7,747 bases of DNA from a virus (lineage: Duplodnaviria > Heunggongvirae > Uroviricota > Caudoviricetes), in the IMG/VR virus record IMGVR_UViG_2537561714_000016, positions 1 to 7,747 of that record; one strand, given 5' to 3'. Every line of letters starts with the position of its first letter. Within the stretch, counting starts at the first letter, position 1. Both the position numbers and the translations under genes were made by a program. The notes beneath the pieces were generated by a model, which worked only from the letters and a program-made list of their open reading frames with translations, searched no databases and was not told the DNA's origin. Of this stretch, positions 5,971 to 6,722 are shown one piece after another.

Positions 5971-6228
5971 CTACTTCGCTTTTGCTTCCGCTCGCTTACG
6001 CCGGCGCTCTTCTTTCCTCTCGGCTTTTGCCATGTCCATGAATGCCTGCATGATCGAGTTCCGCATCATGTAGCTAACAAAGTGATGATTGACACAGCCG
6101 TTGAGGCGCAGCTGCTCGCCAAACTCATCCACCGAGGCCAATGCTTCCATCATACCCTTCTCGCCTTTCATGAACTCTGAGAAGTCGCGCCCCGCTCTGG
6201 AGGCGCATTCAATGACACGATCACTCAT
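5971..6228 (-). CDS. Hypothetical small protein with strongly basic C-terminal tail, translationally coupled to the KilA-N gene
   Basis: 85 aa; ATG overlaps the KilA-N stop (ATGA at 6225-6228). Ends in AKAERKEERRRKRAEAKAK. No family recognised. Confidence 0.55.
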   Translation of the reverse strand: MSDRVIECASRAGRDFSEFMKGEKGMMEALASVDEFGEQLRLNGCVNHHFVSYMMRNSIMQAFMDMAKAERKEERRRKRAEAKAK

Positions 6229-6722
6229 CCCGGAAGCCCGGGGATCGAAATCTGCAACTGGTTAGCCAGGGAGTTAATTTCAGCGATCAAACCAGGTTTC
6301 GTGTAGCGCCATGCCGCGAGGCCTTGTCCACAGAAGCTCGCCATGTCTTTTTTCTGATCAAACTCATGACATTTCATGTTGAGCTGCGCACTTAAGCTGT
6401 TCCGATGATGAAGCTCTCCGGTGAAGTAATCATCGAGGACTTTATAGGCTGCATATTTAAATCCGGGGTTTAGCCATGCTGCGTAATCATAAGCAACGAA
6501 CTTTCCGCCATAAGTTCCACCGTGCGCACCGCGTTCCGTAAAAACCACAGATTCGTGGTTTTTCTCCAGCTCAGCCAAGAACTCTTTGGTCTGCTTGTTT
6601 CGCAGGTAGTGGTACGGAGATTCAGATTCACTTTTACCACTGGCTTTCCACATATCAGTGAGGCAGATCATGCCATCTTCACCGATACGGATTGGTTGAT
6701 TGAAGAGGGTTAATGATTTCAT
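6225..6722 (-). CDS. KilA-N domain-containing protein
   Basis: 165 aa. N-terminal ~100 aa (IRIGEDGMICLTDMWKASG ... EFL ... ESVVFTERGAHGGTYGGKFVAYDYAAWLNPGF) fit the KilA-N/APSES-like DNA-binding domain pattern of phage P1 KilA and Bro-type proteins. ATG at 6720-6722. Confidence 0.75.
   Translation of the reverse strand: MKSLTLFNQPIRIGEDGMICLTDMWKASGKSESESPYHYLRNKQTKEFLAELEKNHESVVFTERGAHGGTYGGKFVAYDYAAWLNPGFKYAAYKVLDDYFTGELHHRNSLSAQLNMKCHEFDQKKDMASFCGQGLAAWRYTKPGLIAEINSLANQLQISIPGLPG

Follow-up and report, generated by a model that had tools for sequence, protein, structure and literature searches.

A KilA-N gene pair in the variable slot after Rz of lambdoid late operons is preceded by a leader RNA with a predicted pseudoknot

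Introduction

What does a KilA-N gene do between the lysis and packaging genes of a phage, and from which transcript is it expressed? The question is raised by a 7,747-nucleotide (nt) stretch of virus record IMGVR_UViG_2537561714_000016 of the Caudoviricetes (positions 1 to 7,747; the whole of this stretch is hereafter called the window), in which a gene for a 165-amino-acid (aa) KilA-N protein and an 85-aa gene, together referred to as the cassette, follow the lysis genes Rz and Rz1. A sequence-only reading had described this pair as an autonomously expressed moron carried as cargo between conserved phage modules, with the small gene apparently supplying the separated C-terminal partner of the KilA-N protein. 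The genes are already known from databases, from classic phages and from Shiga toxin (Stx) phages, and are uncharacterised: the pair is annotated without a function in HK620 (hkbK/hkbL), HK97, HK022 and many prophages, and our literature search found no functional study of hkbK/hkbL or of HK97 gp73. A Bro-network accessory gene located after Rz, namely rha, has itself been known for decades. Here, we describe a structured leader RNA upstream of the 165-aa gene that is also present upstream of rha in phages phi80 and P22, and we consider what this leader suggests about the expression and role of the cassette.

Results

A structured leader precedes the 165-aa gene

The 113 nt before the ATG of the 165-aa gene fold with an energy of -48.7 kcal/mol (z score, -3.3), and the basal helix of this fold pairs the purines of the Shine-Dalgarno sequence. 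The upstream regions of homologous cassettes comprise several sequence types that are strongly divergent and have the same fold. A covariance model, R1, built from HK620-type leaders without the leader type of the window, matched the window leader at 6720-6833 with 54 bits (E value, 1e-10). Full-length matches, on the coding strand only, were also obtained with the HK97 type (45 bits) and with a Klebsiella copy (38 bits), while in a strand control the reverse strand scored 24.6 bits against 125.5 bits. As RNAalifold recovered only the core helices from a plain MAFFT alignment of all leader types, alignment to a covariance model was needed for the analyses that follow.

Covariation was counted in a first set of 56 distinct sequences on an alignment fitted to the model. 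In this set 90.3% of the cells were paired, compared with 72.7% after shuffling, and double-sided changes were present in 30 of the 33 pairs. Compensatory cells numbered 298 against 89 in the shuffles, none of 500 of which reached 298, and controls in which the alignment was slid were 41 to 51% paired. An independent set of 32 loci, found by an exact-pattern scan with one genome taken per species, was drawn from Pantoea, Rouxiella, Rahnella, Providencia, Serratia, Brenneria, Buttiauxella, Enterobacter and other genera; all of these loci gave full-length matches, with 94.7% of cells paired and compensatory changes in 25 of 33 pairs. The pseudoknot, formed between the 5' tail and the apical loop, also covaries and was found as 33 distinct helix variants, among them CACCGA/TCGGTG (the window), CGTCGA/TCGACG, CGAGAG/CTCTCG, CCCGAG/CTCGGG, CCAAGAG/CTCTTGG and CCACAGAG/CTCTGTGG. 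When the two strands were swapped between leaders, the mean duplex energy changed from -10.4 kcal/mol for cognate pairs to -7.5 kcal/mol (p = 2e-8). The final three positions of the model coincide with the ATG of a real open reading frame (ORF) for all 56 sequences of the first set and for 36 of 37 matches in the second. Strong covariation, that of the pseudoknot included, supports the predicted fold, in which the leader hides the ribosome-binding site of the 165-aa gene.

No Rfam 15 family covers the body of the leader in searches with the whole window and with short slices at E values of up to 10, and no covariance model in that release for C4, IsrK/IsrJ, hammerhead or other ribozymes, or riboswitches matches it. 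The sole Rfam matches were below threshold: isrJ and rimP matched the terminator, and DUF805b matched a stretch of 25 nt. The matches of isrJ, a small RNA of Salmonella Gifsy-1, scored 15 to 16 bits against a gathering score of 37 and lie at window positions 6872-6940 on the minus strand (the end of Rz plus the first terminator) and in HK97 (L005, 1545-1614); they probably reflect terminator similarity only. We found no description of the leader in the literature.

The same leader precedes rha and other late-operon genes

The leader is common to about 90 distinct units surveyed (56 plus 31 distinct leaders). Among 32 representative cargo proteins, the domains were KilA-N (10), Phage_pRha (8), ORF11CD3 (8), HNH_3 (4, 2 of them with AP2), T5orf172 (2) and P22_AR_N, ANT, P63C and Bro-N (1 each), and the cargo in the genome set gave the same picture. 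Leader-bearing units occupy the Q/S, R/Rz and Rz/terS junctions of the late operon, sometimes two in tandem, and 48 of 52 are co-oriented with the long ORF upstream. A terminator-like hairpin with a T run was present within 140 nt upstream of 49 of 56 units, a count that is inflated because many loci were retrieved via the terminator pattern. A naive survey of the first ORF after a terminator proved misleading, the terminator pattern being generic.

Additional copies of the leader were seen at L039 (1560-1672), L051 (1119-1226), L077 (1021-1128), L178 (3245-3338 and 2747-2861), L208 (10612-10720 and 9718-9832) and L211 (4112-4206). These copies are situated between Q and the holin gene, between R and Rz, or in tandem after Rz, each with different cargo: HNH_3/AP2, P22_AR_N, a 75-aa ORF, KilA-N plus P63C, and phi80 ORF x171.28.

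Phage phi80 rha and HK620 hkbK have leaders that are 100% identical (model score in phi80, 125.5 bits), and P22 rha lies behind the single model match in the 41.7-kb P22 genome, a leader of the window type scoring 56 bits. In both phages the annotated start of rha is located inside the leader, with the ATG indicated by the model in frame 36 nt downstream in phi80 (L211, 2591 versus 2627) and 69 nt downstream in P22 (orf201; L245, 39575 versus 39644); the annotated Rha proteins of these phages are, therefore, probably too long. The phi80 record notes for rha 'DNA synthesis inhibition in IHF- hosts', IHF being integration host factor, and P22 rha is described as belonging to the late operon and as harming lytic growth when IHF is lacking (PMC4936722). 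The IHF consensus WATCAANNNNTTR was not found around the 56 leaders, and hence a canonical site at this location does not account for the control of rha by IHF. Rha encoded at the slot in an Escherichia coli prophage combines Phage_pRha with the same ORF11CD3 tail as the 165-aa protein.

The two cassette proteins

The two genes overlap at an ATGA (6228-6225, within ...ccgggATGAgtgat...), in which the stop codon of the 165-aa gene overlaps the start codon of the 85-aa gene, as the sequence-only reading had stated. Profile searches with hidden Markov models confirmed the KilA-N assignment that it had made (Pfam E value, 7.4e-16; residues 9-101) and added ORF11CD3 (2.1e-12; residues 109-161), such that an N-terminal DNA-binding module and a C-terminal domain of the Bro/KilA-N network are present in one polypeptide. 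The Pfam searches detected no Phage_pRha, ANT or P22_AR domain in the 165-aa protein, no ANT or P22_AR domain in the 85-aa protein and no nuclease domain in either. PHROG neighbours of the 165-aa family carry transcriptional regulator or anti-repressor labels. No toxin-antitoxin family was found for the pair in Pfam, NCBIfam or PADLOC, and sequence searches of the PDB gave no match.

The 165-aa protein ends in ...QLQISIPGLPG (window 6225-6260), and a motif Q-[ILMT]-x-[IL]-P-G-[LI] is conserved at the extreme C-terminus of ORF11CD3 proteins, those with KilA-N and those of the Rha type alike. We take this motif to resemble beta-clamp-binding peptides, such as QLSLPL of Hda. A clamp-like motif may fit the DNA synthesis note in the phi80 record.

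Over its full length, the 85-aa protein belongs to phrog_875 (E value, 3e-54), a family of unknown function, and AlphaFold models it as a bundle of three helices, the C-terminal one being basic (predicted local distance difference test score [pLDDT], 93). Its only distant relatives are proteins of 160 to 180 aa in which the same module is N-terminal to T5orf172/MUG113 (whole-library E value, 1e-4). Among these relatives is the T5orf172 protein that is an alternative occupant of the slot (pairwise E value, 9e-11); it belongs to phrog_4284, and a reciprocal PHROG match to phrog_875 was obtained for it (1.4e-6). By homology, the 85-aa protein is a free-standing copy of the T5orf172 N-terminal module. 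The proposal of a separated C-terminal partner was not upheld, since the KilA-N protein has an ORF11CD3 domain of its own and the 85-aa protein is related to an N-terminal module. We also considered an origin as the detached C-terminus of longer KilA-N proteins and rejected it; there is no phrog_129 match, and HK97 gp73 carries P63C instead. A candidate zinc site formed by C8, C45, H48 and H49 of the 85-aa protein was weakened by T5orf172-fused homologues, which lack C8 and both histidines.

The slot and the hairpins that bound it

The region after Rz contains two hairpins, designated T1 and T2 (Table 1). The T1 region (6835-6925) folds with -25.1 kcal/mol (z score, -2.6), and the phi80 record labels the same element a terminator. 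In an alignment of 42 distinct upstream regions, the T2 hairpin is retained in other leader types with different stem sequences and with loss of the T run. The stem-loop 3' of the cassette folds with -31 kcal/mol (z score, -5.9; none of 200 shuffles equalled it), lacks a U tract and is conserved across all cargo variants. The tandem terminators and downstream stem-loop of the sequence-only reading are, therefore, present, and the span of 5971-6722 that it had assigned covers both genes and stops short of the regulatory parts, which reach to about 6892. At the empty slot of locus L010, T1 directly adjoins the 3' stem-loop, whose inner stem is different there but compensated; as the two structures abut in the absence of cargo, they belong to the backbone of the slot and not to the cassette. 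The insert proper spans roughly 6867-5972.

The 3' stem-loop sequence (window 5934-5968) occurs twice in HK620, HK97, HK022 and mEp234 (L002, L004, L005 and L007), one copy lying directly after the small gene and the other 160 to 220 nt further on (e.g., L002, 2806-2840 and 2553-2587). This doubling is as would be expected if cassettes swap by recombination at the hairpin.

TABLE 1. Annotated features of the window
Feature	Coordinates	Strand	Description
Structured leader RNA	6836-6720	minus	About 117 nt; fold and covariance model
Leader pseudoknot, 5' strand	6836-6831	minus	CACCGA
Leader long irregular hairpin	6829-6731	minus	
Leader pseudoknot, 3' strand	6778-6773	minus	TCGGTG, apical region
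Leader Shine-Dalgarno-like sequence	6737-6731	minus	GAGTAGG, within basal helix
ATG at leader end	6722-6720	minus	Start of 165-aa gene
165-aa gene	6225-6722	minus	KilA-N + ORF11CD3; hkbK of HK620; ORF and profile search
85-aa gene	5971-6228	minus	phrog_875; hkbL of HK620; ORF and profile search
Terminator T1	6870-6892	minus	After Rz; stem AGCCTCGC/GCGGGGCT, loop GAT, T run
Hairpin T2	6838-6862	minus	ATGCGT-ACCGCA-ACGCAT, then T6; scored as terminator in window leader type
3' stem-loop, nested	5932-5971	minus	Outer GCCATTA/TAATGGC, inner AGCCCATC/GGTGGGCT; no U tract
Lysozyme R	7359-7676	minus	Truncated by window end
Rz	6925-7374	minus	Phage_lysis, E value 1e-34; upstream boundary of slot
Rz1	6978-7193	minus	Embedded in Rz; Rz/Rz1 are the last lysis genes
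HNH endonuclease	4658-5023	minus	Downstream in transcription order
TerS	3805-4368	minus	Downstream
TerL	2147-3808	minus	Downstream; followed by protease-capsid fusion

Distribution of the cassette and of other slot occupants

Over positions 7400-5682, the window and Stx phage 2851 are 99.7% identical, and O157:H7 chromosomes carry the cassette at 100% identity. The cassette was present over at least 80% of its length in 389 of 5,426 complete E. coli genomes, whereas the Rz/R flank was matched in 5,126. In otherwise syntenic prophages, the slot is occupied by Rha, the 161-aa T5orf172/MUG113 protein, Bor/Iss, DUF4406, Gp49, DUF551 or nothing. In HK97, HK022 and mEp234, the small gene is 87 to 99% identical and lies behind a different KilA-N protein, gp73 (242 aa; KilA-N plus P63C), with a sharp mosaic joint between HK97-type and window-type cassettes at about window position 6213, the start of the 85-aa gene. 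An identical small protein is encoded in 80 viral contigs. Whenever such a locus extends far enough to include Rz, Rz is followed by the KilA-N gene and then by the small gene, and the packaging genes downstream are of three kinds (P22, lambda and HK97 type). Klebsiella phage RAH1 has the pair (77% and about 70% identity) between tail genes. Being rare relative to its flank, in a slot that is variable or empty, and having varied packaging and tail-module neighbours, the cassette is accessory and mobile. These findings agree with the earlier description of cargo between conserved modules, and the comparison of syntenic prophages identifies the cassette as variable rather than as an invariant part of the core.

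Expression signals

Scanning of the coding strand between Rz and the ATG detected no sigma-70-like promoter, and a promoter-like match at 8 of 12 positions was found in only 2 of 56 distinct homologous upstream regions. No LexA box (CTGT-N8-ACAG with at most one mismatch) was found near the cassette; two matches elsewhere in the window are at chance level. The guanine-plus-cytosine (GC) content of the cassette is 0.47 to 0.55, like that of Rz and its neighbours, whereas it drops to 0.32 to 0.40 at 5300-5700. The strong hairpin downstream of the cassette, which lacks a U tract in the window, is also found at the empty slot, and a structured RNA fills the gap between T2 and the ATG. For these reasons the cassette is not a self-contained moron, and the notion of autonomous expression is not supported. 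The conserved leader suggests that the cassette is expressed from the late transcript and gated in translation.

An AT-rich insert at 5200-5681 (GC content, 0.32 to 0.40) is absent from phage 2851. It contains an ORF at 5380-5538 on the minus strand, which encodes a very hydrophobic 52-aa product (annotated in RefSeq as a 46-aa hypothetical protein) and for which searches of Pfam, PHROGs, NCBIfam and PADLOC gave no match. Just upstream of this ORF is the region's best promoter-like site (5638-5610; TTTTCA-17-TATTAT), and a hairpin follows the stop codon of the ORF. Compared with the KilA-N cassette, this ORF bears a closer resemblance to a classic moron or to a small membrane toxin.

Other features of the window

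All genes of the window are on the minus strand except DUF3950/YlcI-YnfO at 5065-5250, which is separated from the 85-aa gene by an AT-rich stretch. This plus-strand gene lies between the cassette and the HNH gene, in the orientation opposite to that of the late operon, and is kept at the same place in lambda-type and HK97-type relatives. A scan for tRNA and tmRNA genes in the window found none. Related prophages have a 50-aa ORF that overlaps the 3' end of Rz (L008, 3465-3617; L009, 3427-3579; L010, 2792-2944). It is annotated as hypothetical (WP_001139680 and relatives); Pfam gave no match for it, and the window has no equivalent.

Discussion

Our results suggest, if tentatively and with somewhat less than even confidence, that the cassette is a counterpart, headed by KilA-N, to the rha unit of phi80 and P22, that is, a dispensable and horizontally exchangeable unit that is co-oriented in a Q-dependent late operon and is gated at the level of translation. 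In the lysogen, terminators would keep the cassette silent, and after induction a terminator-resistant, Q-modified RNA polymerase would transcribe it with the lysis and packaging genes. The leader would then hold translation of the 165-aa protein at a low or gated level, with RNase processing, a trans-acting factor or a ligand as candidate openers, and the 85-aa gene would be translated by coupling via the ATGA overlap. The 165-aa protein is predicted to bind DNA through KilA-N and to act through the ORF11CD3 tail that it has in common with Rha. By analogy with Rha, this may amount to interference with the replication or expression of phage DNA, either its own or that of a competitor, late in lytic growth and with the phenotype of the lysogen unchanged. 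The 85-aa protein, with its three helices and basic tail, is a putative partner or modulator of the 165-aa protein. This biochemical function of the cassette is one that we infer.

The resemblance to the rha unit extends to several features. Both units occupy a slot directly after Rz and a terminator in the late operon, both have the same structured leader, both are dispensable, and the slot Rha of an E. coli prophage ends in ORF11CD3. They differ in that Rha has a Phage_pRha N-terminus where KilA-N is found here, in that the coupled 85-aa gene has no equivalent after rha, and in that a phenotype, the inhibition of phage growth and DNA synthesis in IHF-deficient hosts, is on record for Rha. 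Some points weigh against the counterpart reading. The phenotype of Rha is known only from IHF-deficient hosts, and its N-terminal domain differs. The single-sequence AlphaFold model of the 165-aa protein was unusable (pLDDT, 47). Covariation was counted on alignments fitted to the model, a concern that is eased by the controls with slid and shuffled alignments and by the lack of the window type in the model. Expression of the cassette is read from sequence alone, as is the absence of a promoter, and a non-consensus or activator-dependent promoter is possible.

Other explanations assign the cassette to the repressed prophage or to the control of induction. As a classic moron, it would be expressed in the lysogen and protect it by abortive infection or superinfection exclusion, as the abortive-infection protein BstA of Salmonella prophage BTP1 does. 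Lambdoid morons such as lambda bor and HK97 gene 15 are, like the cassette, extra units between conserved modules that are variably present; the slot is variable and houses Bor/Iss-type morons elsewhere, and terminators lie on its upstream side. BstA, a prophage accessory protein with a defence function, has a KilA-N-type N-terminal domain (PMC8585504), and the KilA-N core of the 165-aa protein gave a partial PADLOC match to candidate system PDC-S22 (E value, 1e-8). However, that match spans only about 30 residues and there is no match to the PADLOC model of BstA, a protein of about 307 aa that has another C-terminal domain, is expressed in the lysogen and is accompanied by an anti-BstA DNA element; its genomic position is also different, the cassette being located after Rz and not beside the repressor. 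In further contrast to morons, no promoter of its own was found in the window copy or in 54 of 56 homologous upstream regions, the GC content is not deviant, the bounding hairpins are part of the backbone, and the units are co-oriented with the late genes behind a conserved leader that sequesters the Shine-Dalgarno sequence. Hence, we regard a moron of this kind as unlikely. We likewise consider it unlikely that the KilA-N protein is a trans-acting antirepressor for which the small protein serves as a co-factor or an inhibitor, and that it inactivates a repressor of the CI type and so locks induction or induces co-resident heteroimmune prophages or satellites. The labels of its PHROG neighbours would fit such a role, the same leader precedes ANT and P22_AR_N genes, crosstalk between prophages via antirepressors is established for Gifsy phages (PMC3121763), and deletion of ant reduces late-promoter activity in Stx phage Phi24B (PMC3064807). 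Set against this are the lack of an ANT or P22_AR domain in the 165-aa protein, the absence of a LexA box, and the timing, since a product of the late transcript only would come too late to trigger induction of its own phage; the characterised antirepressors cited are also located in early or immunity regions and not after Rz. The P22 sar-ant (sar is annotated in the P22 record) and P1 c4-icd-ant systems are like the cassette in that RNA structure or pairing acts on the ribosome-binding site of genes of the Bro network, but this is achieved by trans-acting antisense RNAs in the immunity I region, whereas the leader described here is a cis-acting, pseudoknotted element of the late operon.

A further group of explanations concerns the spread of the cassette. 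It may be a selfish, homing-type element, propagated by nuclease- or recombination-driven replacement at conserved flanks, in which the 85-aa protein acts as a stand-alone target-binding module and shields the locus from the related T5orf172 nuclease that competing phages carry in this slot. HNH_3/AP2 and T5orf172 (GIY-YIG superfamily) genes have the same leader and slot, the 85-aa protein is homologous to the T5orf172 N-terminal module, the joint between HK97-type and window-type cassettes falls at the start of its gene, units occur in tandem, and the conserved leader and 3' hairpin could act as recombination arms. In T-even phages, hairpins that sequester the ribosome-binding site are found upstream of free-standing homing endonuclease genes. 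Nevertheless, neither cassette protein has a nuclease domain, there is no known target site and the shielding idea is pure inference, so that we view this explanation as very unlikely. A variant that we rate as quite unlikely centres on the leader, which would be a new pseudoknotted sensor or processing RNA (riboswitch-like, factor-binding or self-cleaving) that gates an interchangeable family of selfish KilA-N, Rha, Bro, ANT, HNH and T5orf172 cassettes across Enterobacterales lambdoid late operons, with the 85-aa module protecting its allele from the T5orf172 nuclease of competitors. Finally, the position of the pair between lysis and packaging genes, and its location next to the HNH gene in HK97-like phages, might suggest a core late function required for lysis or DNA packaging. 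This is excluded by its distribution, to the extent that we give it a probability close to nil: the pair is absent from most related prophages, occurs with HK97-, lambda- and P22-type packaging modules alike and is replaced by unrelated genes in the same slot.

Whatever the role of the cassette proteins, three aspects of this system appear to be new: the shared family of pseudoknotted leaders, the grouping of KilA-N, Rha, HNH and T5orf172 genes as one set of late-operon cassettes defined by that leader, and the tie between the 85-aa family and T5orf172 proteins. The nearest parallel for a conserved RNA that flanks single genes of changing identity is provided by the hammerhead ribozymes in prophage transcripts (PMC3088659), from which the leader differs in having no hammerhead core and no Rfam ribozyme match.

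In summary, a class of 'antirepressor-like' late genes has lacked a clear role since the 1980s, and the counterpart-of-rha reading offers a regulatory logic for it that can be put to the test. The analysis also corrects where rha probably starts in phi80 and P22, and it connects a small orphan protein family with T5orf172 nucleases through the N-terminal module of the latter. Should the leader answer a specific signal, it would constitute a new family of regulatory RNAs in medically relevant Stx prophages.

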